Shown: piece by piece, positions 15,928 through 57,061 of the stretch
Layout of the letters: each line of letters starts with the position of its first letter
How positions within the stretch are numbered: position 1 is the stretch's first letter
From: Desulfomonilia bacterium
GTDB lineage: Bacteria > Desulfobacterota > Desulfomonilia > UBA1062
DNA: 64,000 nucleotides
Assembly (NCBI GenBank): GCA_050014195.1
Contig: JBEKDT010000001.1
Coordinates: forward strand, 64,001-128,000
Direction: 5' to 3'
The notes under the pieces: model-generated
Seen by the model: the letters and a program-made list of their open reading frames with translations, nothing else
Databases searched by the model: none
What the model was told of the DNA's origin: nothing
Translations under genes and position numbers: made by a program

Positions 15928-15937
15928 AGTTCCATGT

Positions 15938-20238: not shown

Positions 20239-20247
20239 AGCCCGGCG

Positions 20248-21429: not shown

Positions 21430-21546
21430 TAGAGATTCCTCCGATTTCTTTAATCCTCTGCTTCTGCTATCGCTGCCCTTCTGAGTGACCAATTGCTATG
21501 CTGCAATATTACTGTTTATAACCATTGTTATCCATAGTACGATTAC

Positions 21547-21574
21547 AGTATATCCTGATATCTATTAAGTGCAA
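21547..21574 (-). promoter_or_regulatory. Sigma70 promoter with operator-like ATATCAGGATAT
   Basis: TTGCAC-16-TATACT; homologous to the 17500-17528 promoter. Confidence 0.55.
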
Positions 21575-21776
21575 GGAATTATACTGTTAAGTTATAGATT
21601 TTGTGCCAGACTAAACGGATTACCCAGATTGAATATATCTTTTGATAATTATCACCACCATGCAATCAGATATGTGTGTATAGAGCTATAAGCACTTTAC
21701 ACTCAGATAAATCATAAGTTTTTCAGAGTACGGGTATGTATAGCTCACACTTTGAATTCTACACTTAATATTTTGC

Positions 21777-24700: not shown

Positions 24701-26960
24701 GCAGCGATCCATGTGCCTTAGTCAAAGTAGAGTTGGGGAACAGTGTCCGAAACCGAGCATTGATAGTATTTTTCCGCCACCACTTCAGGCTGCCGAGGAA
24801 TTCTGCTTTCAGTGCTACAAAGTCGGTATGGATTCCCTTGAGTGGTTCAATCTTGTTATCTTCCATGCCCCCAAACTGCTCAAGAAGTTTATCTGTGTCG
24901 TAGTGATCATTTAACTTTGCAACTCCTACCAACAACATGCCACAGTGTTGACCGAACCGGGACAGTACACGGACGTCACCGGTAGGTTTCAGTCCCATGT
25001 CAAAACAGAGTCTCGGAAATGAGTTCGGAATGTTACCCCCATCTGCGCCTAATGTCTCACAGAGGTCGATTACAATCCGCCGTAGTTCATCGAGATCGCC
25101 AGGTGCAGCAACATGGCGGGACAACTCTTCTGTATCCCATAGGAGAGGCTTGTCAGACATGCACACTTCACTGTCGAGTAGTTCACTAATCTCATCAAGA
25201 CTGATATCGCCACCGCTGAGTATCTCTGCTTCGATCTCTTCCTTAAGAGATGCAATTGAACTGGTTATGTTCTTCTCTAGTTCTCCGTGCTTGCTTTTAA
25301 GGGCTCGATAGGCATCATTGATACTTGTGATTGCAGCGCTCGAAAGAATCTGGGCATAGGTGCTTCCTGTCTTGCCAAGACGTAGGATCGGGTTTTGGAA
25401 GTTCTTGTCATGCCGTACCCGATTCAGCGTTTCTGTAATCTTGTCCTCGACTACATCCAGGGCTTCCTTCTTGTCAGAAAGCACTAGAACAGACTTATTG
25501 TTCAGAACTGCATCACAGACGATAGCGGTAATGGTATGACTTTTACCGGTGCCTGGTGGCCCCTGGACAGTGATATAGTTGCACCCGTCCCTCTTTACCG
25601 CTATGAGTATCTGGCGTTGTTCCTCATTCAAGGCTATCGGCGAAGAAGCCACCAGTTTGTCATCAGTGCTTGTTGCATCCCACTCGTCATGAACATTCGA
25701 CATGAAGGAAACAGGTTCCTTTTCAAGGAAGTCCTGGATGATCCGCTCGAAAGCACCCCCTAGTTCACTCTCGTCAAGGGCTAACTGACGGAGGATCTCT
25801 TCATAGTCGTTAATTACGGCTTCGTCAGATTTTTCAAAAAGAGCGAAACTGGTGGCATTACTGATATTGATAAACTTACTTTTTGCAATCTGCGATTTGG
25901 CTGACCCAATGTCTATTTTAGCATCGGCGGCAAAGTAACTGATCAGTTCATTGAAGACTTCTTGTACGAGAATCTGGAAACCATCTCCCTGGTTAGATAG
26001 ATAAATGATTCGTTCGGTAACGCTTGAGAGACTTCCTTTTTTCTCCGTCTCCCTGCAGTACTCCTGGACAATGAAATCGAGTGCCTTCTTGTTGATAAAT
26101 ACATGGGGATCAAACTCTACAACGAGTGTCTCTCTCTCTCGGAGCAAGTCGATAGGGATATAAAAAAGCGGAAACCTAGTATTACTGTAGCTTATCTCTC
26201 CGAAGTAAAGATAGACATCCTGACCTTCAAGCATTCCCTTGTTACGGACAAGCTCGAATAGTTCCAGATACAGATCGGCAGCCTGATAGGTTTCGAAGAA
26301 ACCTTTGATGGTGCCCCTGACCTCTTCAAGCTGAAGTTGTGTTGCAAAGCGGGCTTCTGCATCGGCCTCCTCACCGGCAATTATTTCACGTACAATGATG
26401 GCAATAATCTCATCGAGTGGCCGGACAAGGACGGCTGTTAACTCCTCTTCCAACAGATAGGTAAGGTTTTCATCGCTGACCGCCAAGTTTGCAAGCGGCT
26501 TGGCAAGGCTGCTTACAAGAGGTTTGACGACCTGTGCATTAACAAGGGTTCCAGCAATGGAAAGGAGCGCTTCAACAGCCCTGTCATATTCTTCCTTATG
26601 TGCTTTACCGAGGCGTCTGGCCTCCTTAGCAAGGGTTGTGGCGATTGAATCAAGAGTTTCAGAGCTAACTCTCTTAAGTTGGGCTTCAACCAATGCAACT
26701 AGGGAGGCAGGTATCAATGCCCGGTAACTTCCCTTTGAAATCTGCTTTAGGATGGATCGGCTAAATCCTCCACGAATAAGCTTCCAGACTATCTCAACAA
26801 ATGCGGGATATTTGTCGAGTTTGATGCCGACCAATAGATTGTCCTGATTCCGGAGTTGAACGGATCGTTTCGGTAAACGTCGCTTGTGGAAGTCAGTTTC
26901 CAGAAAGTCGCGGAAGTAGATTGCGACGTCGCGTAAAAAACCCTTACATCCTGCGTCCAT
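21777..26960 (-). CDS. Large SF1 (DNA2/NAM7-like) helicase with Vsr/restriction-endonuclease-like domain and zinc ribbons
   Basis: QGPPGTGKS, IIDEASQ, GDKKQ, CQGEERD, RLNVGFSRAK; KVDF..IIIEYDGF..H; CPKC..C; CPKCGSNMVLRRGKFGQFYGCSQFPRC (topoisomerase zf-C4). Confidence 0.85.
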   Translation of the reverse strand: MDAGCKGFLRDVAIYFRDFLETDFHKRRLPKRSVQLRNQDNLLVGIKLDKYPAFVEIVWKLIRGGFSRSILKQISKGSYRALIPASLVALVEAQLKRVSSETLDSIATTLAKEARRLGKAHKEEYDRAVEALLSIAGTLVNAQVVKPLVSSLAKPLANLAVSDENLTYLLEEELTAVLVRPLDEIIAIIVREIIAGEEADAEARFATQLQLEEVRGTIKGFFETYQAADLYLELFELVRNKGMLEGQDVYLYFGEISYSNTRFPLFYIPIDLLRERETLVVEFDPHVFINKKALDFIVQEYCRETEKKGSLSSVTERIIYLSNQGDGFQILVQEVFNELISYFAADAKIDIGSAKSQIAKSKFINISNATSFALFEKSDEAVINDYEEILRQLALDESELGGAFERIIQDFLEKEPVSFMSNVHDEWDATSTDDKLVASSPIALNEEQRQILIAVKRDGCNYITVQGPPGTGKSHTITAIVCDAVLNNKSVLVLSDKKEALDVVEDKITETLNRVRHDKNFQNPILRLGKTGSTYAQILSSAAITSINDAYRALKSKHGELEKNITSSIASLKEEIEAEILSGGDISLDEISELLDSEVCMSDKPLLWDTEELSRHVAAPGDLDELRRIVIDLCETLGADGGNIPNSFPRLCFDMGLKPTGDVRVLSRFGQHCGMLLVGVAKLNDHYDTDKLLEQFGGMEDNKIEPLKGIHTDFVALKAEFLGSLKWWRKNTINARFRTLFPNSTLTKAHGSLPIIARTLEMLNKAFLIKAAIPATDKPYDFAATLWSVVHDSEFHGEMERFARLTDDLHYIEERIKIYPVTLKKLGIQEVSITSLCRSKLAAMPQAEFDELVGYIALRQRLEQKFRGLGTVGYAARKRQIEKLITMEMTYRLDGRVIDFYQNNQATAKSLRTIIQKKRRFPKDEFEKLKNAFPCILSGIRDYAEYIPLQADIFDLVIIDEASQVSISQAFPALLRARKVLVLGDKKQFSNVKAAHARSETNNEYLNHLRASFIACVSSDEGKLIRIENFNIRTSILEFFEFINNFTIQLNKYFRGYREIISYSNRYFYKNSLQVMKIRGNIIDDVLAFSFIDHDGKNEPVANTNRPEIDFITTELLRLKAVGFKGTAGIITPHTNQQKLIMEAINRLSERDWLYDNLRLKIMTFDTCQGEERDIIYYSMVANPAIDRLWGIFVKDLEKVDVEENGKIKAQRLNVGFSRAKETMHFVLSKPLDQYSGSIGIALRHYWEERRVAQQEPTSEDVDPKSPMEREVLGWILNTPLWQENRASGSISLIPQFNIGRYLNQLDRTHTYKHPEYKVDFLLTYRDPAGSKHRIIIEYDGFKEHFINHEWVLAHNYNQYYSEEDVYRQKTIEGYGYKFLRINRFNIGKDPVVTLEKRLRAQIEERDETNWVLSGVLETIDGLRTNEVKECPKCKELRDIDEFRDPSLIKGIGRICITCKGMKKETLQKASGLSAQPTKTKCPKCGSNMVLRRGKFGQFYGCSQFPRCRGTKNYNKVQTVEDRSTHLDKSDLVSVSAEPIKTKTEPKSDELHKPYLKDESLNIYVEVCKNKSSEKYFIVKKDINNNKATMILPSGEEMTLKKSLFDELEEYKLSVLIADNLITQEQLSAYKKYINDDATNPPIVLTKEPAYLKSYREELNNPNSLPSRMLYHVREARKITWTDLKDVLTDKYGYRDSGSYSASLRVLYIDGYIKIDGKGDNKFISSS

Positions 26961-27184
26961 GACTATCCCTTTGGAAAATAATAGGGGCACCCTATCTTGA
27001 TTGAGTCAAGAAGAAAAATACGAATGAAGTACAAGAGACAGTGTTTTGTTAATTTTGCAGGTTTTATTCGAAAATCTCTATGTGTGGGGCAGAGACCACT
27101 TGCACAGACCACTATGAGCTATTTGATTATATGGTCAATCTTGGCTGTATACATAATAATGCTAAAATAATCCTGAAATGGATT

Positions 27185-28614: not shown

Positions 28615-29496
28615 ATGGCAAACGTATTCGAGATCGTGACCGAGCAGATTCTAAAACATTTATGTGCTGGTGTTATCCCCTGGAGAAAACCCTGGACTAG
28701 CAAGATCCGGCTTCCCCTTAACCTGGTGACCGGCAAGAAGTATCGAGGGATCAATGTATGGTTGCTCCTTGCTTCCAGCTATGCCTCTCCTTACTGGCTC
28801 ACCTTCAACCAGGCCAAGACCCTCGGAGGGACCATTAAGAAGGGAGAGAAAAGCTCCATCGTGGTTTTCTGGAACTTCAAAGAAGTGGATGAAGTAAACA
28901 AGGACACCAGCCAACTGGAAAAGAAGAACATCCCCTTCTTAAAGTATTACCGGGTATTCAATGCCCTGCAGTGTGAAGGGATCACCTATCCTGAGCAAGA
29001 GGAAGAGACACACACGGACCCCATAGCCGAAGCTGAGGCTATTATAGAAGGATATAAGGGAAGGCCTGAGATAAAGCACGGATTCACAAAGGCCTGCTAT
29101 AACTCTGTAGAGGATCTGATAAAGATGCCCAATAGGTCTGCATTCGTGAACCAGGAGGAATATTTTAGTGTACTATTCCATGAGGCAACCCACAGCACAG
29201 GCTTAGAAACTCGACTCAACCGGGAGACCTTGACCACACCAGCACCTTTCGGATCGAAGAACTACGCACGGGAAGAGCTTATAGCCGAGATGGGGGCTGC
29301 CTACCTGTGCGCAATCACCGGTATTGCCCATGCCACCATTGAGAACTCAGCGGCATATATCCAAGGGTGGAGGGACTCTATCAGCAAGGATTCAAAGCTC
29401 GTTGTCCTGGCCGCTGCCCAGGCCCAGAAAGCAGTCAACTACATCATGGGTAGGCAAGAAGAAGAGAACCACGAGGATGAAGTAGGGCATGGGTAA
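28615..29496 (+). CDS. ardC: ArdC-like antirestriction / ssDNA-binding protein (DUF1738 plus zincin-like domain)
   Basis: PWRKPW, YRGINVWLL, WLTFNQA, FHEATHSTG, YAREELIAEMGAA. Confidence 0.9.
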   Translation: MANVFEIVTEQILKHLCAGVIPWRKPWTSKIRLPLNLVTGKKYRGINVWLLLASSYASPYWLTFNQAKTLGGTIKKGEKSSIVVFWNFKEVDEVNKDTSQLEKKNIPFLKYYRVFNALQCEGITYPEQEEETHTDPIAEAEAIIEGYKGRPEIKHGFTKACYNSVEDLIKMPNRSAFVNQEEYFSVLFHEATHSTGLETRLNRETLTTPAPFGSKNYAREELIAEMGAAYLCAITGIAHATIENSAAYIQGWRDSISKDSKLVVLAAAQAQKAVNYIMGRQEEENHEDEVGHG

Positions 29497-29742: not shown

Positions 29743-29795
29743 GTTTTTTGGGGAGGAACTCCCTGGAGGCCAATAATTTAAAGGGAGGAATATCC

Positions 29796-30572
29796 ATGAA
29801 TGATCTTTTGACTGAAATGAAAACCAGTGATCTCGTTACCGCCTATCAGCAAATGTTGGCCGATCTGGATGAGGCTTATGCAAGGCTCGTCAGGATAAAA
29901 GGACTCTATGAGAAGATCATAGGGGGACGGTTCTTCCCATGCAAGATAGGCCGTTATGATATGGATTTATACGACCCTGAAAGGGATAAAGAGGACTCAA
30001 GGAAGGGTGTACGGATTAACTGCTGGAAGGTCCTCTTTTCACGGATCAAGAACCTTCTTCCGGCCAGAGAAATTTCGAGTATCGAGAAGCAGCTTTCTGA
30101 TGGAAACGTACCCGAATTTACAGAGGAGAATATACACAAGCTGATGTTTTCCTTTATTACCCGGGGGGATGAGTTTAAAAAGCAGATGATTGAAGACGTA
30201 TTCAACTTCTTGAGGCCGCAAAGGACCGGACTCAAGACCAACCAGAGAACTGCCCTGAAAGAAAAAGCCATCATCCCGGGAATAATCGACCATAACAAGT
30301 ATTGGACAACCCTCTCAAGCTACAGAGAAGACAGTTTATGGGACATGGACAAGATATTTCATCTGCTGGATGGTGCAGGTATGCCAAAGTACCCGGGTAA
30401 TCTTCTCACAAGAATCAGAGACGCCATGAGGGAAATGAAATGGCAAACAGAAACAGAATACTTTGAATGCACATGGCATAAAAACGGAAACATGCATATC
30501 CGGTTCAAACGCATGGATTTAGTTTGCGAGATTAACAAGATTGCCGGATGTGACAAGCTGCAGTCAGTATAA
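29796..30572 (+). CDS. DUF4942 family protein
   Basis: PEFTEENI, VFNFLRP..LKTN, KIFHLLDG, YF..WHKNGNMHIRFKRMDLV; GGAGG RBS before ATG 29796. Confidence 0.75.
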   Translation: MNDLLTEMKTSDLVTAYQQMLADLDEAYARLVRIKGLYEKIIGGRFFPCKIGRYDMDLYDPERDKEDSRKGVRINCWKVLFSRIKNLLPAREISSIEKQLSDGNVPEFTEENIHKLMFSFITRGDEFKKQMIEDVFNFLRPQRTGLKTNQRTALKEKAIIPGIIDHNKYWTTLSSYREDSLWDMDKIFHLLDGAGMPKYPGNLLTRIRDAMREMKWQTETEYFECTWHKNGNMHIRFKRMDLVCEINKIAGCDKLQSV

Positions 30573-31939: not shown

Positions 31940-34864
31940 ATGGCGTGTTATCATATCCAAGTTAAAATAATCAGCAGAGGTGGAGGCAAATGCGCCGTTT
32001 CCGCAGCAGCCTACCGCTCGCGGGATAAGCTCTATGATGAACGCCTGGACATGACATTCGACTATACGAAGAAAAAGGACCTCGCCTATGCAGAGATCCT
32101 CCTTCCGGAAAATGCACCGGAGAGACTGAAAGACCGGCAGACCCTCTGGAATGAAGTCGAAAGAGTCGAGAAACGAAAAGATGCACGCCTCTCCCGGGAA
32201 GTCGAGTTAGCTCTTCCCAAGGAACTGAACTTCGAACAACAGGTAGCCCTCGTAAAGGAATATGCACAGAGTCAATTCGTGGACAGAGGCATGATAGCCG
32301 ACATCTGCATCCATAAGAGTGATAAAAATCCTCATGTTCATATTATGCTTACAACAAGAGAAGTTACCAGGGATGGCTTTGGTAAAAAAGTAACCGCATG
32401 GAATGATAAAGCAGAACTCCTGAAATGGCGGGAAGAGTGGGCGAATATCCAGAACCGGAAATTGCTGGAAGCAGGTCACGATATCCAAGTAGACCACAGA
32501 AGCTTTGCAGATAGAGGCATTGACCTTGAGCCGACATCGAAGATCGGGATAGCAGCAAAATACCTGCCCAAAGGTTACCTCCACCTGCAAGAAACCCGAG
32601 GACTTGATCGCCTCGAAGAGTACCAGAGGATATGCCGCGAGAACGGAGAACGTATTATCAACGATCCGATAAAAGCCTTGAAGCTCGTTGGGCATTACGA
32701 TGCCGTGTTCAAGCGGGAAGACATCATGGATTTTGCCTTCCGGCACAGCGCAGATGCGGATCAGTTCAACCGTGTTTTCTCTGCCCTTGAGAACAGTCAA
32801 GAGCTCATCAAGATCGGGAAAAACGAGAAAGGGGAAGACCTGTTCTCTACCCGCACAATGATGATGAGCGAGAAGACCATGCTCGATAATGCGAGAGTCA
32901 TGACATCTTCAAACGGTCACGTCCTGGAGCAGGCTATCATCAACCAGACAGCGAAAAACTACACCATGAGCGAGGAGCAGGAAAAGGCATTCAGAAGTAT
33001 CGCAGAGGGCGATGATATCTCCGTCATGATCGGTCGTGCAGGAACAGGGAAAAGCTACACCCTTGGAGCTGTCAAAGAAGCATATGAAGCAGGAGGATAT
33101 CGGGTAAGAGGCCTTGCACTTTCGGGCATCGCAGCAGAAGGCCTTCAGAATGAAAGCGGCATCGAAAGCACAACCATCTTCAGGCAGTTGGATGATTGGG
33201 AAAATGAGAGAAATCTACTCAACAAAGACCAGATCCTGGTGATCGATGAAGCAGGTATGGTTGGAACAAGACAGATGCATAAGATTCTAGAGCACGCCCA
33301 TGATACAGGAGCAAAAGTGATCCTTGTGGGAGACAATGAACAGCTTCAGTCAATCGAGGCAGGAGGATCATTCAGAGGTATTATCCAGAGAACCGGATAC
33401 GTGGAACTTGCAGAAGTGAGAAGACAACATGTTGATTGGCAGAAACAGGCAACCGTAGAATTCTCAGGCAACAAAGAACAAGCAGAAAAAGCCCTGGAAA
33501 TGTACCACGACCATAGTCATATCCATGAACTCCAGACCAGGCAGGACGCCAAGGATCAGATGCTGAAAGAATGGGCGGATCAACAACAACTTTCAAAACA
33601 GAAACACGAGACCAGCCTCATGATGGCCTACACAAACAAGGACGTAAATGAACTTAATCAGGGGGCAAGAGAACACAGAAAAATGCACGGAGAACTTCGT
33701 GGCTACGAACACACATTCATGACCGAAAAAGGAGAGAGAAATTTCTGCACCGGGGACCGGATTATATTCCTCAGGAACGAGCATTCTTTAGGCGTAAGGA
33801 ATGGTTCTCTCGGTACAGTAGAGAGCATCAACCGGGGAGCCATATCCGTCAAACTCGATAAAGGCGACAGGGTCGCTATCGATACCAGCATGTATAAAGA
33901 TTTCGATCACGGCTATGCAGCCACCGTGCATAAGACACAGGGTTCAACACTTGACCATACCTTTGTGCTCGGCTCACGTCATTTTGATAAGCATACTGCA
34001 TATGTTGCCATGAGCAGACATAGAGAAAATGTGACCATGTACTACGGCAAGGATGAATTCAGGAACTTTGAAGACCTGCAGAGAGTCATGAGCAGAGAAC
34101 GGCCTAAGAGTCTGGTTGTTGATTATGGACTGCCCAGGGGCATTGAAGTGGATAACAGAGTCATCGAGGCTGAGAGGGTTATGACTCACGAAGAAAGACG
34201 CATCCAGGCCCAGGAATGGCAACAGCAAAGAGACCAGGAACAGTATGTCAAACAAATGAAGGAAAGAGGCATTCAAGTTGAATTACCCAAAGATAAATCT
34301 GTAGCCGGATACTTTACGAGAGTGGAAGAGATTGGCGGAAGGAAATATGCAGTTATCGATACCCATGCTAATCCAACCAAGGGGAATCGCTACCTGATAC
34401 CCTATGAGAAGCAATACGACCAGATGCAGATGCACCACTATGTAGCCTATGATGGAAAGGAATTGGGATATGCCAAGCGGAGCAGAACCCCTGAGAAGGA
34501 AATACAACAACAAGTTTCTCAGGAGAAGCAGGGAGAAAAAGGCATATCGACACCCGACCGGAAACTTACTCCGGAAGAATTCAATTACTGCCAGCGCATG
34601 CAAGATAGGGGGCTTAAGGTTGACTTCCCAAGAGAAAGGGCTGTGGAAGGCTATTATACAAAGATCGAGGAACTCGGCGGCAATAAATATGCAGTGATTG
34701 AATCGAAGGGTGTTCGCTACATGGTATCCTATGACAAGCAATACGATAAGATGCAGATGCACCGGTATGTTTCATATGACGGTCAAACGATGCGTTCTGC
34801 AAAGGCTCCATCGATAAAAATAGAAAAAAATCAGGGGCTGGGACTTGGAAAGAAGTTAAATTGA
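31940..34864 (+). CDS. traA: Ti-type conjugative relaxase-helicase TraA (MobA/MobL, MOBQ)
   Basis: AAAYRSR, ALPKEL, H..NPHVHIML; RecD-like GRAGTGKS, VIDEAGM, GYAATVHKTQG. Confidence 0.95.
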   Translation: MACYHIQVKIISRGGGKCAVSAAAYRSRDKLYDERLDMTFDYTKKKDLAYAEILLPENAPERLKDRQTLWNEVERVEKRKDARLSREVELALPKELNFEQQVALVKEYAQSQFVDRGMIADICIHKSDKNPHVHIMLTTREVTRDGFGKKVTAWNDKAELLKWREEWANIQNRKLLEAGHDIQVDHRSFADRGIDLEPTSKIGIAAKYLPKGYLHLQETRGLDRLEEYQRICRENGERIINDPIKALKLVGHYDAVFKREDIMDFAFRHSADADQFNRVFSALENSQELIKIGKNEKGEDLFSTRTMMMSEKTMLDNARVMTSSNGHVLEQAIINQTAKNYTMSEEQEKAFRSIAEGDDISVMIGRAGTGKSYTLGAVKEAYEAGGYRVRGLALSGIAAEGLQNESGIESTTIFRQLDDWENERNLLNKDQILVIDEAGMVGTRQMHKILEHAHDTGAKVILVGDNEQLQSIEAGGSFRGIIQRTGYVELAEVRRQHVDWQKQATVEFSGNKEQAEKALEMYHDHSHIHELQTRQDAKDQMLKEWADQQQLSKQKHETSLMMAYTNKDVNELNQGAREHRKMHGELRGYEHTFMTEKGERNFCTGDRIIFLRNEHSLGVRNGSLGTVESINRGAISVKLDKGDRVAIDTSMYKDFDHGYAATVHKTQGSTLDHTFVLGSRHFDKHTAYVAMSRHRENVTMYYGKDEFRNFEDLQRVMSRERPKSLVVDYGLPRGIEVDNRVIEAERVMTHEERRIQAQEWQQQRDQEQYVKQMKERGIQVELPKDKSVAGYFTRVEEIGGRKYAVIDTHANPTKGNRYLIPYEKQYDQMQMHHYVAYDGKELGYAKRSRTPEKEIQQQVSQEKQGEKGISTPDRKLTPEEFNYCQRMQDRGLKVDFPRERAVEGYYTKIEELGGNKYAVIESKGVRYMVSYDKQYDKMQMHRYVSYDGQTMRSAKAPSIKIEKNQGLGLGKKLN

Positions 34865-34875: not shown

Positions 34876-35559
34876 TCATCTCAAAACGTGCTCCATGATT
34901 TCAGGAGAATCATTCCGAGGATCGTTCACAAGTTTCGAGACTTCATATGCTTCCATCTCCTCGGCAGGATAAGGCTTAAGGCAATTCAGCAAGGCAGCTT
35001 CCTCTTCTCTCTGTGAACTCAGCCACGACTTGAAGCAATCAGGAGATAGGATAGCAGGCATCCTGTCATGGATCTTTTTGATCAGTGAATTTGCTTCCGT
35101 GGTGATGATCGTGCTTGAGATGATCGTATTTCCGGTTTCCTTATCACGCCACCTATCCCAAAGCCCAGCAAAGACGATGGGCTTTCCGCTTTTTAGCTTG
35201 ATGAGGTAAGGCGTCCTTGTCTTATTCGCAGTATCCCATTCATAAAACCCCATTGCCGGGATGATGCACCTGGTTCGTTTGAGTGGCTCTTTAAAAGACG
35301 GTTTCTGTGTAAGCGTCTCCGCCCTGGCATTTATCAACCGGTTCCCGATGTTCTTATCTTTTGCCCAGTAAGGTATAAGTCCCCAACGAGTGAGGGTAAG
35401 CCTCGGCGTAGGGGTATTAATCACGGTCAGAATATCTTTCGTGGGCGTGACGTTATAGCTCTGGGTAAAGTGACTCAGAGCCTCCTCGTCCACTTCCAAC
35501 TCTGAGAAGCCTACCTCGATCTGCTCTGGGTCAATGATCTGGATGAAACGGCCGCACAT
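34876..35559 (-). CDS. SOS response-associated peptidase (SRAP/YedK)
   Basis: True start MCGRF (catalytic Cys2), WGLIP, INARAET, GFYEW, IHDRMP. Confidence 0.92.
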   Translation of the reverse strand: MCGRFIQIIDPEQIEVGFSELEVDEEALSHFTQSYNVTPTKDILTVINTPTPRLTLTRWGLIPYWAKDKNIGNRLINARAETLTQKPSFKEPLKRTRCIIPAMGFYEWDTANKTRTPYLIKLKSGKPIVFAGLWDRWRDKETGNTIISSTIITTEANSLIKKIHDRMPAILSPDCFKSWLSSQREEEAALLNCLKPYPAEEMEAYEVSKLVNDPRNDSPEIMEHVLR

Positions 35560-35700
35560 TATTCGTTCCTCTTCTGATATACTGGGTTGTACATCAAATA
35601 ATGATAAGTTGTCCATGCACAGGAGCTTTGCACGGTTATCCAGATCTCTTCCCCCGCTCTCCTTTACAGTCAACTCCCGTGGTGTTAGTATCTCCTGCTT

Positions 35701-36153
35701 GTGACAAAAATCTCAGAAAAAAACGAATTGCGTGTTACAGGAATCTGGGGCTTCGAAAGCAAGTCTAGCCTCAAGATACCCCTCTTCTCTGTAGGCATAT
35801 CTGCTGGATTCCCCTCACCGGCAGAAGACAGCATTGAAAAGAATCTCGACCTCAATGAGTTTCTCATCAAACATCCGTCTGCAACATTCTTTGTCCGAGT
35901 TGCAGGAGATTCGATGACCGGGGCGGGTATTCATACCGGCGATATCCTCATCGTAGACAGAGCTTTGGAACCAAAATCGGGTAATGTGGTGATTGCCATG
36001 GTCAATGGCGACTTTACAGTGAAAAGGTATAACCACATAGATGGCAGATGTTTCCTCCTGGCTGAAAATTCTCAGTTTAAGCCTATCGAGATAACGGACG
36101 GCATGCAGGTGGAGGTGTGGGGAGTCGTTTCTTACGTAATCCACAAGGTGTGA
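35701..36153 (+). CDS. umuD: UmuD-like S24 peptidase
   Basis: SAGFPSPA cleavage site, GDSM, FTVKR. Confidence 0.92.
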   Translation: MTKISEKNELRVTGIWGFESKSSLKIPLFSVGISAGFPSPAEDSIEKNLDLNEFLIKHPSATFFVRVAGDSMTGAGIHTGDILIVDRALEPKSGNVVIAMVNGDFTVKRYNHIDGRCFLLAENSQFKPIEITDGMQVEVWGVVSYVIHKV

Positions 36154-36156
36154 TCA

Positions 36157-37416
36157 ATGGAACAGATCTTTGCTCTGGTAGACTGCAACAACTTTTATGC
36201 ATCCTGCGAACGTGTTTTTAACCCTTCTATTGATGGTAAACCGGTTGTCGTACTTTCAAACAATGATGGGTGTATCATAGCCAGATCAAACGAAGCTAAG
36301 GCATTAGGCATTAAGATGGGAGAACCTCTGCATCAGTGTCAAACTCTCATCGCAAAAAACAAAGTGCACGTCTTTTCATCTAACTTCCCGCTATATGGCG
36401 ATCTGTCTGCCCGTGTAATGGGGACACTTGCTACCTTTACTCCCGAGATGGAGGTCTATTCAATAGATGAGGCTTTTCTAGATCTCACCGGCATTCCTGA
36501 GAACCTCACTGAGTATGGAAGAATTATCAGGAAGACCGTAAAAAGATGGGTCGGCATCCCTGTGTCCATCGGGATAGCTCCCACCAAAACACTTGCTAAG
36601 GCTGCTGCAAAGCTAGTGAAGAAGCGGAGTGAATATCAAGGAGTATTCGATATCACAGACCACATAGAAACCCTCGCCGACATTGATGTGGGAGATGTAT
36701 GGGGGGTTGGTTGGCAGTATACCAAGCTCCTCAGGCGACATGGGATCTTGACTGCGCTGGATTTGAGGAATGCACCTGCTTCCTGGGTTAGAAAGCACAT
36801 GACTGTTGTGGGCCTGCGCATAGTTATGGAGCTTAGAGGTACGTCCTGCATACCCCTTGATGAAGGAGAGCAACCCAAAAAGTCCATTATGTGCTCCAGG
36901 TCCTTTGGCCGTAAGGTCTATACCCTTAATGAGCTTAAGGAAGCTGTATCCGCTTATACATCCAGGGTATCCGAGAAACTGCGTGAACAGAATTCTGCTG
37001 CATCCATCATCCAAGTGATGCTCATCGAGTTTCCATTCAATGATGGGCATCCAAGGACTCATTTCTGCTCTACCACAATTCCTGTTGCCACCTCGTACAC
37101 CCCTGACCTCATACGGTATGCCAAGGCCCTTCTGGAACGTGTATACCGGAAAGGTCCGGCATATAGGAAGGCAGGGGTAATGCTCTCCGGAATATGTCAG
37201 AGAGGACAGGTGCAAATGAACCTTTTCCACACCAGTCGTGAAGGGGAACAAGAGCTAAAACTCATGCAGACCGTGGATGAAGTAAACAGGCGATGGGGCA
37301 GAGGAACTCTCATCCATGCCTCCTCCGGCTTCGCGCGACCGTGGTGGATGAGGCAGACAAGGCGATCTCCCCAATTCACGACATCCTGGACAGATATCCC
37401 GGTTGTAAAGGCTTAA
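36157..37416 (+). CDS. umuC: Y-family DNA polymerase V subunit
   Basis: LVDCNNFYASCE, SNNDGC, YSIDEAF, C-terminal W.M....SP.FTT.W. Confidence 0.95.
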   Translation: MEQIFALVDCNNFYASCERVFNPSIDGKPVVVLSNNDGCIIARSNEAKALGIKMGEPLHQCQTLIAKNKVHVFSSNFPLYGDLSARVMGTLATFTPEMEVYSIDEAFLDLTGIPENLTEYGRIIRKTVKRWVGIPVSIGIAPTKTLAKAAAKLVKKRSEYQGVFDITDHIETLADIDVGDVWGVGWQYTKLLRRHGILTALDLRNAPASWVRKHMTVVGLRIVMELRGTSCIPLDEGEQPKKSIMCSRSFGRKVYTLNELKEAVSAYTSRVSEKLREQNSAASIIQVMLIEFPFNDGHPRTHFCSTTIPVATSYTPDLIRYAKALLERVYRKGPAYRKAGVMLSGICQRGQVQMNLFHTSREGEQELKLMQTVDEVNRRWGRGTLIHASSGFARPWWMRQTRRSPQFTTSWTDIPVVKA

Positions 37417-37477: not shown

Positions 37478-38266
37478 TCACTTAGTGCTGTCAATGATTG
37501 CTTTTAACAAAGAAACCGACATAGCCACCTGCTTCAAAGCTTCATCCTCGGTAATGATTCTCTTCTGTGCGTAACACTTATTAGCCAAGCCGATTGAGCT
37601 ATTTGCTATCTTTGATATCTCCCTCTTAAGATCATCAATGGATTTGATTTGAATCGGAGTTACCATCTTTTCAAAAGCTCGCTTCTTTTCAGTGCTAAGA
37701 GGTAAGACGGAGTCTAATGCATCATCAAATTCAGCGTGATGTTCTTTGCTCCACTTGCCTATTTCAGTATATACCTTCCCATCACCGGTAGGAGAGCTAT
37801 CATAGGGGAAATTATGAAGAGGTTGAGATAGATCACCGACATAATGGGCTATGTTACCGAGATAATAATCATACTCCCATCCCCTTGACCCTTTCAGCTT
37901 TTTATAAAGCTGCACTATCTCCCAGTATAAGACCCCGGATGAATCGGGAACTCTAATCTTGATTGGTTGTGATCCTGGGGAACCCAATTTTTGATAAGTA
38001 CCTACGGTTATCTGATACCGGTCAATATATTCCGGAGTAACAATGGTATTAGGAGCAGCATCATGCCAGTGATACGGAACTAATAAGGCATATTCTTCAT
38101 TCCTGGAGAGATCAGGGAAACATGCTGTTTCAGGATCTGCAATACCAGCCTCTTGGGCAATAAGTATGTGGGTTATTGATGACCATGCCTGAGCATTAGT
38201 TGAAAGAATGAGTATTGTAAGGATACTTATAATGGCTCTCGATGAATATTTCATAATTGACCTCAC
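37478..38266 (-). CDS. Secreted S1/P1 nuclease / phospholipase C-like Zn enzyme
   Basis: Signal peptide then mature W..xxH start (AQA-WSSITH), PD, HWH, HYVGDLSQPLH. Confidence 0.7.
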   Translation of the reverse strand: MRSIMKYSSRAIISILTILILSTNAQAWSSITHILIAQEAGIADPETACFPDLSRNEEYALLVPYHWHDAAPNTIVTPEYIDRYQITVGTYQKLGSPGSQPIKIRVPDSSGVLYWEIVQLYKKLKGSRGWEYDYYLGNIAHYVGDLSQPLHNFPYDSSPTGDGKVYTEIGKWSKEHHAEFDDALDSVLPLSTEKKRAFEKMVTPIQIKSIDDLKREISKIANSSIGLANKCYAQKRIITEDEALKQVAMSVSLLKAIIDSTK

Positions 38267-38411
38267 TTTGTTGGCAGTAGGGAATCACAGTTGAAATGTC
38301 ATATGATACTGAAATAATTATATCATATTATTATGGAATAATCCACTTTGAGCTGACCTCCTGGTTGTTCTAACGTATCTGATTGTATGGTGGTGATGTT
38401 TATATGGTGGA

Positions 38412-38440
38412 TTGAGTCCTTTATGATAGTATGCTATTAT
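38412..38440 (+). promoter_or_regulatory. Sigma70 promoter with extended -10
   Basis: TTGAGT-17-TATTAT with TG at -15/-14; predicted +1 at G38447. Confidence 0.7.
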
Positions 38441-38446
38441 TCAATT

Positions 38447-38766
38447 GGGAGGCGTAGCTTCCCCATCACCTTCAGCCTGAAAAGGCGAAAGGAGGCTTCA
38501 CATGAGTAAGCTCATTGCTTACCTAATGATGGGGCGGCGTTCGTTTGTGGCTGAATTCTCGATTTGAAAAACTCCGGACCGTGGTAGCCCAATAGCTATC
38601 GCGATTCCATTCTCATTCTCGACCGGAGTCACAAGGGGCACCTGTCGTTGCGTCGATGACGCAACGAGCCAAGAAGACTAGCGATTGTCCTATCGTCGCG
38701 GTCAGGCCCAGCAGGTGTTACACACCGCTGTCAGAATTCTGATTGCGAACGTGTGTAGCGCCTCCC
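38447..38766 (+). ncRNA. Candidate ~320-nt highly structured RNA (unassigned family)
   Basis: 5'/3' pairing GGGAGGCG/CGCCTCCC enclosing four stem domains with many G-U pairs and a GAAA tetraloop; promoter directly upstream. Confidence 0.7.
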
Positions 38767-38939
38767 TTTAATGGATTTCATAGGAGGCGGTTCTCTGTTC
38801 CCTGTAAGAAGTCGAGGAAGTGCTTGTAGTTGCTGTTGAATCTCAGCGGTGTGGAGTATCATATTAGTAATGAAGAGTAAAAGTGCAGTATAGTTATTGT
38901 TGAGCTACTCAATAATCCTATGAAATTAGGTAGAAACTG

Positions 38940-49099: not shown

Positions 49100-49627
49100 T
49101 CAATTAGAGCCAAATACAATCAGCGGTTTCTCTACCCATCTAATATTTTCTTTTCTGACTGTTCCGAAATACCTGCTGTCAAAGCTGTTGTTGTACGTGC
49201 TGGCAAAGAAATACTCCCCCTGCCTAAGAACATATTTGCAATATATTCTGGGTAACGGGAGGCCCTGTGAATCATTTTGCTTCACCGGCCCAAAGTACTT
49301 ACCGTTAATGTAGAGCCCGGCTGTAGAGACCTCAACAACATCACCCTGCTTTGCAACCACAGGCTTTGTGAGGTAGAAATTCAGGTGTTCAGGAAGCCAT
49401 CCCCTTGTCTTCATCAGACCATTAACATTCCGGGGTATGTCAAAAACACAGATCATTCCTTTATCAATCCGGTCCGGATGATCGATCCGGTAGATACCCT
49501 TAGGGAGGCTCGGCGTTATCTGGAACATAATCTTATAGCTCAAAGCCTTACACACAATCATAAATCCCACTACTACCAGGAGAGCATGGATCAGGGGTTT
49601 CAGCTCGGGCTTTTTTCTCCACATCAA
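49100..49627 (-). CDS. traF: Conjugative S26 peptidase TraF (pilin maturase)
   Basis: TPSLPKGIY, KPVVA..GD, SFDSRYFG. Confidence 0.88.
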   Translation of the reverse strand: MMWRKKPELKPLIHALLVVVGFMIVCKALSYKIMFQITPSLPKGIYRIDHPDRIDKGMICVFDIPRNVNGLMKTRGWLPEHLNFYLTKPVVAKQGDVVEVSTAGLYINGKYFGPVKQNDSQGLPLPRIYCKYVLRQGEYFFASTYNNSFDSRYFGTVRKENIRWVEKPLIVFGSN

Positions 49628-49640
49628 TTACACTCATCAC

Positions 49641-50951
49641 TCATTGAAGCGAATACGGCCTCAGGATCATATCGCGGTTCACCATCACATTGAACTTGTA
49701 CCCCGGTCTGATTTCGATGGTGGGGGCAACATTGAGCTCACGATCAAGGAGCTTCTGCCCGGCCTGGTTGATTCCACTCGCCGCATCTCCTGCCATCTGC
49801 TGTCTTGTAGTGGGATAGTTGCCTTCAGAGTTATTGCCACCAGCCTGACGGGCTCCGACGCTTAAGAACGTGCTCAGAAGGACAGCACCCGCAATCCTGC
49901 CATAGTGATAATTCACTTGGTCCTTTGCCCCGGCATACCCGGAAAGGTCGGTCCCCTGCATGCCGTTCAAGAGGATGGATGACCCGTCCGGGAATATCAT
50001 TCTGGTCCAAACCTGCATGACTCTGTCCTGCCCCCAGGAGATCTGATTGTCATAGGTCCCGATCAGCTTGGTTCCCTGCGGGACCAGAAGATATCTCCCC
50101 GATACCGAATCATAGACGTTCTCCCGGAGCTGGGCGATGATCTGCCCGGGCAGATCGGAGTTTATGCCTGTGATCAGGACTGCAGGGAGGACAGTTCCTG
50201 CCATGACCTGGTAAGGGGATGCAGGCTCCTGGATCTGGTGCTCCAGGTATATGGCTTCATCGGATTTTTTTGATTCATCGAGGAAGGCCCTCTTCCGGGC
50301 CTGGTCAGTATAAGGCTCCTGGCCGCCCGGGGCCTGGGCCAGCATCATACCCGGAGGCATTGAAGGCATGTTCGGCGCTTGAGATAAGGCAGCTGCAGGG
50401 GATGCCTGTTGCATTCTCGCGGGAGTGCTTGTCTCTGAGAAAAAGATCTTCGATTTCCGGGCCTCGTCAAGCGCCTGTTTCTTCGAGTCTTGTGTCCCTG
50501 CTCCCCCTTGGGAGGGCTGATTGTACGGGTCATATGGCTGGGTCTTTCCGTATCGTGGATCACCAGCATTAAAGCCGTATTGATAGGGCTGCTGAGGACC
50601 TGGCTGACCATTATTCATGCCGGGCATGTTGGGGTCCATGTAAGAGAAAGGCTGTCCGTTCTGTGCCACATCTCCTGCCTTGCTCCCTCTCACCTGTTCC
50701 CCATATGTCTTTGGAAGTTTATCAAAAGATTCCAGGTTCACTTTATCCCGTGGCTCGGCTGCTATCTCAGGGGCCGTTGAAGGCTGAATGGTTTCGGTAG
50801 CCCCGCTCTTTTTTGGCCCGAAACCGATCCCGAACAGGACAAAAGCGAGGAAGAAAACACCGCAGAGGAGGCCTACAACCATCTTCTTGTTTATCTTGCT
50901 GATGCCTTCAGGTTTCAGTCGTATGTTCTCAAGCATGTTCTTATCCTCCAC
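49641..50951 (-). CDS. trbI: TrbI / VirB10
   Basis: AGTVLPAVLITGINSDLPG, PQGTKLIG, PTIEIRPG. Confidence 0.93.
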   Translation of the reverse strand: MEDKNMLENIRLKPEGISKINKKMVVGLLCGVFFLAFVLFGIGFGPKKSGATETIQPSTAPEIAAEPRDKVNLESFDKLPKTYGEQVRGSKAGDVAQNGQPFSYMDPNMPGMNNGQPGPQQPYQYGFNAGDPRYGKTQPYDPYNQPSQGGAGTQDSKKQALDEARKSKIFFSETSTPARMQQASPAAALSQAPNMPSMPPGMMLAQAPGGQEPYTDQARKRAFLDESKKSDEAIYLEHQIQEPASPYQVMAGTVLPAVLITGINSDLPGQIIAQLRENVYDSVSGRYLLVPQGTKLIGTYDNQISWGQDRVMQVWTRMIFPDGSSILLNGMQGTDLSGYAGAKDQVNYHYGRIAGAVLLSTFLSVGARQAGGNNSEGNYPTTRQQMAGDAASGINQAGQKLLDRELNVAPTIEIRPGYKFNVMVNRDMILRPYSLQ

Positions 50952-50985
50952 GCCATGTTGATATCAGTTCACAAAACTCTCCTGA

Positions 50986-51975
50986 TCAAAGGCCGCCCAA
51001 GCTGAACTCGTTTGCACTGTTGCGGTAGATGTACACCTTCTCCGGGCTCGACGTGCCGAGCTGCAGCAAGGCTTTGTCGAAAAGACGGTCCACAATGTAG
51101 TAATGCTTCTGATAGCGGTAGTTCACGAGCTGAGAGTCGCTCTCCTTGGTCACGATGAACAGGGGCGGAAGCTCTCCCTGCTCGATGTCAGCAGGGAACT
51201 GGATGAATACCTTCTTTCCGTCATCGAAGGCCCTCAAGGGTTTCCAGGATGCACTGCCCTTGATGGAGTAGTTGAAGTTGAGATCCGAGATCTTGAGGTT
51301 CGCTATGATGTCCATCTTCGTGTCATTAACGGCATTGATCCTGTTCGTAATACTAGCAAGTTGGTCCTTGGGGTAATACCAGGACACACCTGCCTGGTAG
51401 GTTTCATTGAAGCTCTGGCACTCAAGGTGATAGATATGCTTGTCAGTAGATACAGCGATGTTAGTGTGAAGGTTCGGAATGTGTGGTTTCAGAAAGATGT
51501 GCACTCGCTGGTCCTTTCCAGTCCCGCTTGTAGTAACGTCCAATGACCACCTGGCGGTGTCACCTGCAGCGGGCGGGCTCGTAAGTGTTTCACCCGGCTG
51601 GAGCATAATGTCCGTCACGTGGAATGGTGCGCTGTAGATCTCATAGAGGGCTCCTTCCATGTAGTCATAAACGGTTACGGCGTTGATGTACCGGTCCTCA
51701 GTGGGCTTCTGGGCTGCCTCTTTGTTCGCCTCATCTATCACTTTAGCCGGGTCCTCGTTCTTCTTCTTGGATGCCTTAGCCTCCAATTTCTTGAGCTGAG
51801 GACTTGCCACTTTCTTGTAATTCGCCTGGGGCACGGGATCAGCTACGGGGATATCGAATGTGGACCCCTTCTGAGTAGGCGCTTTCACCTGCCGGGCAGG
51901 TACGATTTTTTCGTTCTGGGCACATGCTGATATTACAAAAAGACTTATGAGTACGATGACGATACACTTCTTCAT
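50986..51975 (-). CDS. trbG: TrbG / VirB9
   Basis: TDIMLQPGE, AGDTARW, WKPLRAFDDG, PPLF, VNYR. Confidence 0.92.
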   Translation of the reverse strand: MKKCIVIVLISLFVISACAQNEKIVPARQVKAPTQKGSTFDIPVADPVPQANYKKVASPQLKKLEAKASKKKNEDPAKVIDEANKEAAQKPTEDRYINAVTVYDYMEGALYEIYSAPFHVTDIMLQPGETLTSPPAAGDTARWSLDVTTSGTGKDQRVHIFLKPHIPNLHTNIAVSTDKHIYHLECQSFNETYQAGVSWYYPKDQLASITNRINAVNDTKMDIIANLKISDLNFNYSIKGSASWKPLRAFDDGKKVFIQFPADIEQGELPPLFIVTKESDSQLVNYRYQKHYYIVDRLFDKALLQLGTSSPEKVYIYRNSANEFSLGGL

Positions 51976-51993
51976 GAATTCACTTCCCTCCTC

Positions 51994-52683
51994 TCAATTC
52001 ACCTTGGATATGTTGAAAAAATCGATGAAGATCCCGAGCGGATTGGTCCGTAGAAGCTTCTCATCCTTCGGGGTATGAAAGACCAGGTTGAATATGCCTG
52101 TATAAGCCTGCCTGGTTGAAGGCGTACCGTTGTTCTCGAAATCCTGCTCATACCAGTTCACCTGGTAGCTGTTCTCGCTCATCTTGACAGCGCTTGACAC
52201 TTCCACGGACACAGCCCTCTTTCCAAGCTGTTTGAACGGGTCCCATTCCTTTGCGTACGCATTCAGCGTGTTCGACCCTTTGGGTGTCAGGAAATTGTAA
52301 GATGCAAGATAGTTGTGCCTCATAATAATCGCATCCGTCGGGATGGACCGTATCTGTGTCACGAACTGACCCAGAAAATACTCTGTTGCCGCTTCATTTG
52401 GTCTGTATAGCTTGTCAGCCTTGCCGACGAGGTTGACGGACCCATGTTCATTGACCTCAACGATATAGGGCACTACAGAGGAATTTAACGCTAAAAATAT
52501 GAAGCCAACCAACAAAACGGTTATGACAGCGAGCTCCCCGAATGCGATAAGCCTCCAGTTAGCAGCCTGCACCCTGGCCGCACCGATGAAGTCATCGAAC
52601 TCCTGTTTCGCCCTCTGGTACGGGGTTTCCGGTTCGCCTTCCGGTGTGAACTTCAACTTTTTAACTATTGCCAGTTTTTCCAT
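51994..52683 (-). CDS. trbF: TrbF / VirB8
   Basis: PETPYQRAKQE, QAANWR, VPYIVEV, NPLGIFI. Confidence 0.92.
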   Translation of the reverse strand: MEKLAIVKKLKFTPEGEPETPYQRAKQEFDDFIGAARVQAANWRLIAFGELAVITVLLVGFIFLALNSSVVPYIVEVNEHGSVNLVGKADKLYRPNEAATEYFLGQFVTQIRSIPTDAIIMRHNYLASYNFLTPKGSNTLNAYAKEWDPFKQLGKRAVSVEVSSAVKMSENSYQVNWYEQDFENNGTPSTRQAYTGIFNLVFHTPKDEKLLRTNPLGIFIDFFNISKVN

Positions 52684-53671: not shown

Positions 53672-53698
53672 GCTTCTACCTCACGGTTATTCCATTCT

Positions 53699-53839
53699 TC
53701 ACGGAAGATCCTTCATTGGTGTGGCTGTTGATTTCTTTGTTCCCCAATCTCTCATGGGGTCTTTTTTCGAGTTATCCGAACTACTGCAACTGGCAAGAAC
53801 CAATATGATAACTCCACAGGCTATTACTTTCTTAATCAT
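53699..53839 (-). CDS. trbK: Entry-exclusion lipoprotein TrbK-like (46 aa, missing from ORF track)
   Basis: MIKKVIACGVIILVLAS-CSSSDNSKKDPMRDWGTKKSTATPMKDLP; lipobox LASC, GGAGG RBS, located between trbJ and trbL. Confidence 0.8.
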   Translation of the reverse strand: MIKKVIACGVIILVLASCSSSDNSKKDPMRDWGTKKSTATPMKDLP

Positions 53840-53869
53840 TCTCTACCTCCATGCATCAGCTTCACTGCC

Positions 53870-57000: not shown

Positions 57001-57061
57001 CAATACCTCCCCCGCCCAATCCATGGGCAGTAAGCAAAGCTGTCGCTATAGCTTTTGAAAG

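Follow-up and report, generated by a model that had tools for sequence, protein, structure and literature searches.

A 64,000-nt stretch of a Desulfomonilia bacterium contig (JBEKDT010000001.1, positions 64,001 to 128,000; referred to as the window) contains a gap between genes at 38267-38939 that holds a predicted structured RNA element on the + strand. The gap is flanked by an S1/P1-nuclease-like gene that is read leftward (37478-38266; PF02265, 30.8 bits) and an AbiGi gene that is read rightward (38940-39719; PF10899, E 6e-36). The AbiGi gene starts 170 nt downstream of the element on the same strand. The G+C content of the element island is 0.52-0.54 compared to 0.33-0.40 in the surroundings, and the stretch is single-copy in its own genome (G000). 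A first reading of the letters alone (the original prediction) had proposed a multi-domain RNA with its own promoter at this site, and direct inspection of the window located every sequence feature that it named. The promoter was recovered by a sigma70 scan (38412-38440, + strand). It consists of the −35 hexamer TTGAGT (38412-38417), a 17-nt spacer, and the TG-extended −10 hexamer TATTAT (38435-38440), matches 9 of 12 positions, and places the predicted +1 near G38447. A simple terminator scan of 38200-39000 detected no + strand terminator, and a simple sigma70 scan detected no minus-strand promoter inside the element.

The predicted RNA is approximately 323 nt long (38447-38769, + strand) and consists of a helix, P1, that closes a junction of P2 (with P3 and P4), P5, P6, and P7. 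The 5′ strand of P1 is GGGAGGCG (38447-38454), and the 3′ strand is the anti-Shine-Dalgarno-like CGCCTCCC (38759-38766), followed by TTT (UUU; 38767-38769). In the RNA, 5′ GGGAGGCG pairs with 3′ CGCCUCCC, and the two ends of the molecule close on each other. P2 pairs a pyrimidine-rich, anti-Shine-Dalgarno-like 5′ strand, CCCCATCA (38461-38468), with TGATGGGG (38527-38534). It encloses the P3 hairpin GCCU-GAAA-AGGC (38475-38486), which carries a GNRA tetraloop, and the P4 hairpin GUAAGC-UCAUU-GCUUAC (38506-38522). P5 (TTGTGGCT, 38545-38552, with AGTCACAA, 38627-38634; also written UUGUGGCU/AGUCACAA) spans 38545-38634 and encloses a variable domain. P6 (GGCACCTG, 38637-38644, with CAGGTGTT, 38712-38719; also written GGCACCUG/CAGGUGUU) spans 38637-38719, and P7 (UACACAC, 38719-38725, with GUGUGUA, 38751-38757) spans 38719-38757 around an inner hairpin at 38726-38750. 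The P6 loop of the window lineage contains a two-hairpin insertion (38645-38711) that includes a perfect 10-bp hairpin at 38645-38667.

The minimum free energy (MFE) of the + strand (38447-38770) is −139.2 kcal/mol compared to −102.1 ± 5.5 kcal/mol for 100 dinucleotide shuffles, none of which was as stable (z −6.79). The − strand fold has a z score of −3.86. P1, P2 with its two hairpins, P6 with its 10-bp hairpin, and P7 are present as originally drawn. The second domain had been drawn as ACTCCGG/CCGGAGT with TTGTGGCT/AGTCACAA as an alternative. The MFE fold contains the alternative rather than the first pairing, and the homologues described below back the same choice.

The most conserved part of the element is a short open reading frame (ORF) that the original prediction had missed. 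The very strong Shine-Dalgarno (SD) sequence GAAAGGAGG (38487-38495, + strand) lies 6 nt before the ATG, and part of it is occluded by the CCUU/AAGG pairs that flank P3, in which a pyrimidine run upstream is its partner. The mini-ORF, MSKLIAYLMMGRRSFVAEFSI (38502-38567, + strand), has 21 codons and a TGA stop and starts inside the P2 domain between P3 and P4. Its first ~13 codons traverse P4, whose first base is ORF base 5 (position 2 of codon 2), and the P2 3′ strand, which corresponds to codons 9-11. Codons 11-13 contain GGGCGGCG (38532-38539, + strand), a near-copy of the P1 5′ strand.

Relatives of the element were sought by BLAST. There was no match in the 51 other genomes of the same family (the order-level set is the same 52 genomes) or in plasmid and phage collections. 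A convincing match was found in 1 of 121 other genomes of the class (G069) and in 3 of 400 other genomes sampled from the phylum (G359, G317, and G266), and all four aligned to the same 60 nt of the mini-ORF region (38487-38547). A further 56 phylum matches (E 4e-4 to 0.1) were short; the one inspected (L019) lies inside a long ORF and looks like chance. A degenerate pattern was constructed from the seed matches that fixed the inner pairs of P4 and contained neither the SD nor the A of the ATG. The pattern matched 15 loci in species-representative genomes, four of which duplicate loci already in the set, and 47 metagenome contigs, and a scan of viral contigs gave 0 matches. De-duplication left 46 distinct cores and 43 true members. 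L060 (identical to L081), L070, and L089 are chance pattern matches that have no SD or ATG and no covariance-model match. The 5′-domain covariance model matched 59 of 63 sources, once each, and missed exactly the four chance loci. The automatic consensus of model R1 pairs GCGU with GCGU and CUUC with the SD, and R1 was used as a search tool only because this consensus is not the favored fold.

The relatives comprise 36 distinct full-length elements of 219-329 nt. Fourteen of the 67 pattern-bearing sources (L006, L042, L053, L059, L060, L070, L072, L081, L083, L084, L088, L089, L090, and L092) were left out of the full-length set because an end motif is missing, owing to contig ends, to an L006-type variant without the 5′ GGGAGGCG, or to chance matches. 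The genomic relatives are metagenome-assembled genomes (MAGs) of Desulfobacteraceae, Desulfobacterium sp. N47, Smithella, Syntrophaceae, Syntrophorhabdales, Thermodesulfobacteriota, Nitrospirota/Nitrospiraceae, Planctomycetota/Sedimentisphaerales, and Calditrichaceae. Each locus has one copy, and two metagenome contigs (L055 and L056) carry a copy identical to that in the window. The members fall into three subtypes that share P1, P2, P3 or a substitute, the SD-AUG, and P4 and differ in their 3′ halves. The P6 loop is only 3-9 nt in the 17 other subtype-B relatives, and the insertion is the source of the extra length of the window copy. These data point to an apparently undescribed RNA family of ~220-330 nt with 43 distinct members in at least four phyla.

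The fold is conserved across the family. Single-sequence MFE folds are closed by a 5′-3′ helix in all 36 full-length elements. The first domain consists of exactly two hairpins in one helix in 25 elements and has an interrupted stem in eight more (33/36), and two to four further domains follow. The P1 core GGGAGGCG/CGCCUCCC is nearly invariant, with one G-C to A-U double change (L033). P2, P3, and P4 together have 90.8% of 673 alignment cells paired in the 36 sequences, and 9 of 20 pairs show double changes. None of 500 shuffles equalled the alignment on any of the five measures, and slid controls were 35-57% paired. P2 alone has double changes at 6 of 11 pairs, for example C-G 20, G-C 7, and A-U 4 at one pair. 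The inner five pairs of P4 never vary, but they were fixed by the search pattern, and their invariance says little. P5-P8 were examined in the 18 subtype-B sequences that include the window. These helices are 88.2% paired compared to 76.1 ± 1.1% in shuffles (0/1000), with double changes at 20 of 27 pairs overall, 9 of 10 in P5, and 4 of 7 in P7. The covariation in the 5′ domain and in P5-P8 bears out the proposal of a multi-domain structured RNA.

The pairing asymmetry and loops argue that the element is a + strand RNA, which is much more likely than single-stranded DNA, because U-G pairs far outnumber A-C pairs, P3 carries GNRA loops, and an SD and AUG are present. The 3′ half contains 60 G-U/U-G pairs compared to 12 A-C/C-A pairs, and P2 contains 45 U-G cells over the 36 sequences. 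A GNRA tetraloop caps P3 in 10 of 36 elements. Four versions were scored (GAAA, GAGA, GCGA, and GUAA), and a fifth, GUGA, was seen by eye in L061. The strand had originally been assigned from G-U pairs and the GNRA loop of the single copy, and the assignment holds for the family. P8, a hairpin inside P7, carries a UGACYA loop (UUGACUA or UUGACCA) in most subtype-B members, for example L035, L036, and L062. The window copy does not have this loop and forms a different hairpin there (38726-38750). Several candidate features were considered and set aside. No tetraloop receptor for the P3 GAAA loop was seen by eye, and a tmRNA or tRNA-like 5′ end is disfavored by the lack of an Rfam match and of a CCA or T-arm by eye. 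The likeness of the P8 loop UUGACU to attC spacers (CCAGTCAA), as mimic or complement, was judged to be chance because the word is present in some arrays only.

The ribosome-binding features of the mini-ORF are present throughout the family. An SD and an ATG occur in 43 of 43 true members (43 of the 46 distinct cores), with the SD 6-9 nt before the ATG. GGAG is contained in 40 of the 43 SDs, and the consensus is GAAAGGAGGU. The amino terminal consensus of the peptide is M[SRG]KLx[AST]Y[LIVF][ML]x[GRWE..][RWG]R[SL].. and the mode of its length is 19 aa. The stop is at codon 20 in 12 of 43 members, with TAA, TAG, and TGA all used. The frame is 13-53 aa long in 39 of 43 members, and four subtype-A copies read through to 79-96 aa. 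The long ORFs of these four copies are not regarded as real proteins: close relatives stop at 29-34 aa, and the stems covary through them. Three patterns fit coding. The Leu at codon 4 is encoded synonymously by CTC, CTT, CTA, or CTG; the middle T of codon 8 is invariant and gives L, I, F, or V; and codon 6 is GCT, TCT, or ACT (A, S, or T), even at the cost of the top P4 pair, which is lost through this change in 14 of 36 elements. The element thus probably functions in part through ribosome binding or initiation.

GGAGGCG-like words, which would compete for the 3′ CGCCUCC, occur at three places in the RNA: the 5′ end in P1, the SD core, and codons 11-13. By eye, 19 of the 36 full-length relatives have an exact GGAGGCG as the internal copy. 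CCUCC words are found in the 5′ strand of P2 and in the 3′ strand of P1. When RNAalifold was given the 5′ domain alone, the P2 pyrimidine run paired with the SD; when it was given the 3′ half alone, with the 5′ end left out, the internal GGCG paired with the 3′ strand. In members that do not have P3, the SD is instead covered by a small hairpin, such as CUUC-UAUU-GGAG or UUUCC-GAAA-GGAGG. The three GGAGGCG-like words, the CCUCC words, the alternative RNAalifold pairings, and the SD hairpins suggest that the family has the ingredients of a conformational switch that could gate the SD and the closure of the ends. A further copy of GGAGGCG lies 17 nt after the RNA (38783-38789, + strand), where it could compete with the 5′ end for the P1 3′ strand; this copy is seen only in the window lineage. 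A variant in the G266 lineage (L006, L083, and L088) does not have the 5′ GGGAGGCG, and the only partner left for its 3′ GCCUCC is the internal GGAGGC of the mini-ORF.

The ends of the element differ between copies. Seven of 36 elements, including the window, have a sigma70-like promoter (at least 9 of 12 matches) whose end is 5-21 nt upstream of GGAGGC. In most elements without a good promoter, P1 extends outward by another 10-15 pairs. The outer P1 sequences vary and compensate, for example GAUGCCA/UGGCAUC, GGAGAUUA/UGAUCUCC, and GGAGCUCA/UGGGCUUC. The median outward pairing is 10/14 without a promoter compared to 5/14 with one (one-sided p 0.011), a contrast that is a hint only because the sequences are related. 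A helix of 20-26 bp is of the size cut by RNase III. Because the lengthened P1 suits RNase III, the cassette copies described below may be excised from longer transcripts. In 28 of 36 copies, the 30 nt after the element include a run of three or more Ts, which is weak evidence for an end since the flanks are AT-rich. In 16 of 36 elements, the P1 3′ strand is followed after 9-22 nt by a conserved AAAGAAC-like word, TTNCAAAGAAC (for example L047:7412-7422 and L038:1429-1439, minus strand). The word is absent from the window, and most of its carriers read as attC-flanked.

The family was compared to named RNA classes. A search of the whole window with Rfam 15 at the gathering score returned only a tRNA (11581-11654). 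Relaxing the threshold to E up to 10 over 38100-39000 gave three matches of 13-14 bits, compared to cut-offs of 33-50, and the element thus resembles no Rfam family, as originally claimed. The DUF1874 motif, which we take to be an Rfam family, would as such have scored. That motif is linked to integrons and is distinct from the present RNA, as far as the available portion of the 224-motif paper describes it (PMC5737381). A search of full-text literature found no description of such an RNA, although an unnamed motif in supplementary tables is possible. In the available sections of PMC11014356, gene-less cassettes of Vibrio superintegrons show promoter activity, and the authors state that small RNAs were not tested there. 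The accessible part of a 2026 cassette-screen preprint mentions an ORFless cassette in passing only.

Other RNA and DNA classes share some of these features. The present RNA can be set beside large RNAs on mobile DNA and beside short RNA toxins. HEARO (the omega RNA of IscB/IsrB), GOLLD, and ROOL are large, covarying, ornate RNAs on mobile DNA that had no known function when they were discovered, and all are in Rfam. Unlike these, the present RNA has no Rfam match at E up to 10 and has a translated-looking mini-ORF. An omega RNA of IscB, IsrB, or TnpB was rejected: there is no HEARO match, the neighbors are the S1/P1 nuclease and AbiGi, and one relative adjoins an IS200-like TnpA with no TnpB or IscB. 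CreT-type RNA toxins consist of an SD, an AUG, a few codons, and a hairpin and trap a tRNA or the ribosome. The element likewise has an SD, an AUG, and a very short frame followed by strong structure, and it encodes no protein of obvious function. However, it is about three times larger, has no CRISPR/CreA context, and has no conserved rare codon pair (codon 12 is CGG, AGG, TGG, or GGG). A riboswitch or cis-regulatory leader was rejected in that the downstream genes form no conserved class (ten ORFs from nine loci, and about ten cassettes without an ORF). A retron msr-msd was rejected in that no reverse transcriptase domain was found in six flanking ORFs or in ten downstream ORFs of relatives.

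The genomic contexts of the relatives point to integrons. L038 encodes a full integron integrase (TIGR02249, 441 bits compared to a cut-off of 265; 4078-5145, + strand) that diverges from a leftward row of small ORFs. A 105-nt repeat occurs on both sides of its element (1447-1717, − strand), with a spacing of 451 nt between the two copies, and the L048 element lies between 123-nt repeats that are 99% identical. Integron-integrase matches were found in 5 of 5 host genomes tested and were above the cut-off in three. Visual inspection of the flanks gave at least 17 of 36 elements with an upstream GTTRRRY-type box (20-45 nt away), a downstream RYYYAAC-type box accompanied by an imperfect palindrome (15-45 nt away), or both, and the orientation relative to the element was constant. 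A crude attC script recovered 10 of 36 and picked some boundaries wrongly, and L036, L047, and L066 showed no shared attC-like repeats when searched for direct repeats. About ten cassettes contain no ORF before the next attC-like site. With a mini-ORF of 13-53 aa in 39 of 43 members, the family agrees with the definition of gene-less in PMC11014356 (no ORF >210 bp). These data suggest that the family is found mainly as gene-less cassettes in integron-type arrays.

The window copy has a different setting. It has no convincing attC-like flank when aligned to those of L038 and L048, and no integron integrase was found among the scanned window ORFs. The window is an ICE (integrative conjugative element): a relaxase, ArdC, and a type IV secretion system are all present, and the RNA element sits in the cargo. 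The copy here is one captured by an ICE. The original description of an ICE-borne RNA is correct for this copy and does not extend to the relatives, which are typically in cassettes with attC-like bounds. Neither the S1/P1 nuclease nor the AbiGi gene is a conserved partner of the element. The ten downstream ORFs that were compared, taken from nine other loci, show no relationship among themselves, and none is an AbiGi; a Pfam match is missing in eight, and the other two are a Peptidase_M48 and a weak DUF3800. Some loci have features of their own. L005 has a truncated integron integrase 250 nt downstream (1976-2593, + strand; TIGR02249 profile positions 106-311) that is on the strand of the element, unlike the usual divergent layout. 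In the Desulfobacteraceae MAG that contains L047 (G511), five or more integron-integrase matches exceed the curated cut-off, two of them with internal stops. In G069, an IS200-like Y1 transposase ORF (PF01797, E 2.5e-14) follows an attC-like site just past the element (L003:1-423, − strand).

The explanation that we favor, with a probability of roughly 0.4, is that the element is a stand-alone, ribosome-gated fold-back RNA that works like the toxin mRNAs of the hok/aapA1 type. The full-length fold of aapA1 blocks translation, 3′ processing activates the mRNA, and RNase III turns it over, according to the available text of PMC5416894. Like hok and Helicobacter aapA1/IsoA1, the element has a small SD-led ORF in a compact, stable RNA with 5′-3′ long-distance pairing, alternative pairings over the SD, a helix long enough for RNase III, its own promoter, and a location in mobile or accessory DNA. 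Type I toxin mRNAs are defined by a small SD-led ORF and a 5′-3′ fold-back, which the element has, and by a hydrophobic, membrane-spanning peptide, which was not found among the 43 peptides examined. The peptide of the element is short (mode 19 aa), basic, and without a membrane-spanning stretch, the RNA has four extra conserved helices, no conserved antisense promoter was found in 36 elements, and there is no sequence or Rfam relation. The element is not a member of the hok/aapA1 class, because its peptide is not hydrophobic and a simple sigma70 scan detected no conserved antisense promoter.

In the proposed mechanism, the choice of which GGAGG copy holds which CCUCC copy would set access to the SD. 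A ribosome on the mini-ORF would have to unzip P4 and P2 and cover the internal GGAGGCG, which would couple translation to closure of the ends, and closed ends would protect the RNA. Copies without their own promoter would have P1 lengthened to ~20-26 bp, which would let RNase III cut the RNA from array transcripts, whereas the window copy would start at P1. The effector would be the short peptide or the ribosome-engaging RNA itself. Selfish maintenance or a stress-triggered module would be the most likely role, because the logic is hok/aapA1-like and the contexts are mobile. The integron-cassette and ICE-cargo contexts are compatible with the proposed defense or addiction role, and no partner gene or antisense RNA was found.

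Several observations weigh against this explanation. Unlike in aapA1, P1 does not itself sequester the SD, and the elaborate, conserved P5-P8 exceed the needs of a simple translational switch. Codons 10-12 change radically as P2 covaries, the mini-ORF varies from 13 to 96 aa, and the peptide tail is not conserved. Much of the peptide conservation may be at the RNA level, because codons 10-12 follow P2 covariation and the length varies. The invariance of the P4 stem is partly imposed by the search pattern. Strictly hydrophobic runs reach at most 8 aa in the 43 peptides, and uncharged runs at most 11 aa. No positionally conserved antisense promoter was detected: a simple sigma70 scan, whose reach does not extend to a trans-encoded or non-sigma70 antitoxin, found scattered weak minus-strand matches (8-10 of 12) in 18 of 36 elements and none in the window. 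The only trace in an RNA library is a 178-nt contig of one relative (run X20, an activated-sludge metatranscriptome) at a depth of 3.2, which could be DNA carry-over. This contig is 90% identical over 38465-38555 and then diverges, and its start, end, and strand are not visible; it may hint at transcription of a relative. The window stretch is present in 19 DNA runs, which may include its source sample and are uninformative on expression.

A trans-acting noncoding RNA and a cis-acting expression leader are serious rivals. In the former, the RNA would act in trans or scaffold a host or integron protein, the peptide would be meaningless, and the SD-AUG would be incidental or would serve to bind the 30S subunit or a protein; P5-P8, the GNRA loop of P3, and the UGACYA loop of P8 would be the functional parts. 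The covarying multi-helix architecture in four phyla fits this idea, and so do the P3 GNRA loop, the UGACYA loop conserved in subtype B, and the three 3′-half subtypes on one 5′ core. Under it, a peptide of variable length with residues that follow P2 covariation would be expected, and the lengthened P1 resembles the excision stem of a stable RNA. We judge it somewhat unlikely, however: all 43 members keep the SD, its spacing, and the AUG, which the search did not impose, several codon-level patterns fit coding, no conserved partner gene is nearby, and the window copy does not have the UGACYA loop. A cis-acting cassette would supply a promoter and a structured, ribosome-loaded 5′ leader that stabilizes or regulates downstream transcripts, those of the next cassette or, here, of AbiGi. 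SD-like 5′ stabilizers such as STAB-SD are known, but the fold is far more elaborate than these. The orientation is sense in every cassette context inspected, several loci carry an ORF at a distance of 15-45 nt past the element, AbiGi follows 170 nt downstream on the same strand, and the window scan found no + strand terminator; in contrast, the downstream genes are unrelated or absent, and a short U-run follows P1 in most copies. The promoter activity of gene-less cassettes in the Vibrio superintegron, as given in the available sections of PMC11014356, agrees with a cis-acting role, whereas only 7 of 36 elements have a good sigma70-like promoter and the attC-flanked copies mostly have none. 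The lengthened P1 points to excision and not to a leader, and on balance a cis-acting cassette is unlikely.

DNA-level explanations are far less probable. ICEs and integrons both pass through single-stranded DNA, the − strand also folds beyond chance (z −3.86), and comparative methods cannot strictly separate single-stranded DNA from RNA, as noted in the available part of PMC5737381. We regard a single-strand promoter, origin, or recombination site that acts in conjugation or cassette recombination as very unlikely given the strand asymmetry of 60 G-U to 12 A-C pairs, the GNRA tetraloops, the SD-AUG at proper spacing, and promoters positioned to start at P1. The recombining attC strand is the bottom strand, and the element is on the top strand relative to attC. 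A nonfunctional remnant or a miniature inverted-repeat transposable element (MITE) with terminal repeats that mimic the closing helix is the least credible alternative and is largely refuted because the helices covary. Many copies do have a terminal inverted repeat of up to ~25 bp, and an IS200-like transposase ORF adjoins the element in G069. Nevertheless, the element is single-copy per genome (including G000) and per locus, inspection by eye gave no target-site duplication, the outer repeat is maintained through covariation with G-U pairs and not as a fixed sequence, the internal asymmetric helices covary, and the long ORFs are not conserved.

A bolder variant, which we consider doubtful, is that the element is an RNA-level addiction, defense, or anti-defense effector without a protein partner. 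It would then be the first conserved RNA-only cargo of integron cassettes and a new class of mobile RNA gene. Such an effector would be excised, probably by RNase III, at the lengthened P1 and would act on the translation machinery through the unusually strong SD, the mini-ORF, and the GGAGG/CCUCC words, and it would move between phyla as a ~400-bp cassette and into ICE cargo.

For gene-less integron cassettes, only promoter activity is shown in the available sections of PMC11014356, and small RNAs are proposed and not demonstrated. Like the Vibrionaceae gene-less cassettes described there, members of the present family have attC-like bounds, mostly no ORF >210 bp, sense orientation, and, in some cases, good promoters. 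Those cassettes carry promoters without a conserved RNA fold in the part of PMC11014356 at hand, whereas the present family is conserved in sequence and structure across phyla, and its window copy is outside any integron. The family is a concrete candidate for an RNA that fills gene-less cassettes and of which one copy has entered a conjugative element. If it is an RNA-borne maintenance or defense device, it would add an RNA-only class to integron and ICE cargo and represent a compact new riboregulatory architecture. If it is merely a stabilizing leader, it would still show a way in which otherwise silent cassettes might be expressed.

The ICE features of the window (11581-57024) start with the tRNA at 11581-11654, and the conjugative functions lie on both sides of the element. 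ArdC (28615-29496), DUF4942 (29748-30572), a MobA/TraI-type relaxase (31940-34864), and SRAP, UmuD, and UmuC homologues (34876-37416) precede it. A VirB11-like ATPase, a coupling protein, a signal peptidase, and homologues of VirB10, B9, B8, B6, and B4 (46318-57024) follow it. Defense-island-like cargo spans 13735-26990 and 40092-44378. It includes a DUF3800 protein (13735-14631), an HNH protein (14689-15882), and a 1737-aa SF1 helicase with a topoisomerase-type zinc ribbon (21777-26990). A 484-aa protein encoded at 17885-19339 has pentapeptide repeats fused to an ion-channel domain, and a 1428-aa protein with weak STAND/NACHT NTPase matches adjoins AbiGi.

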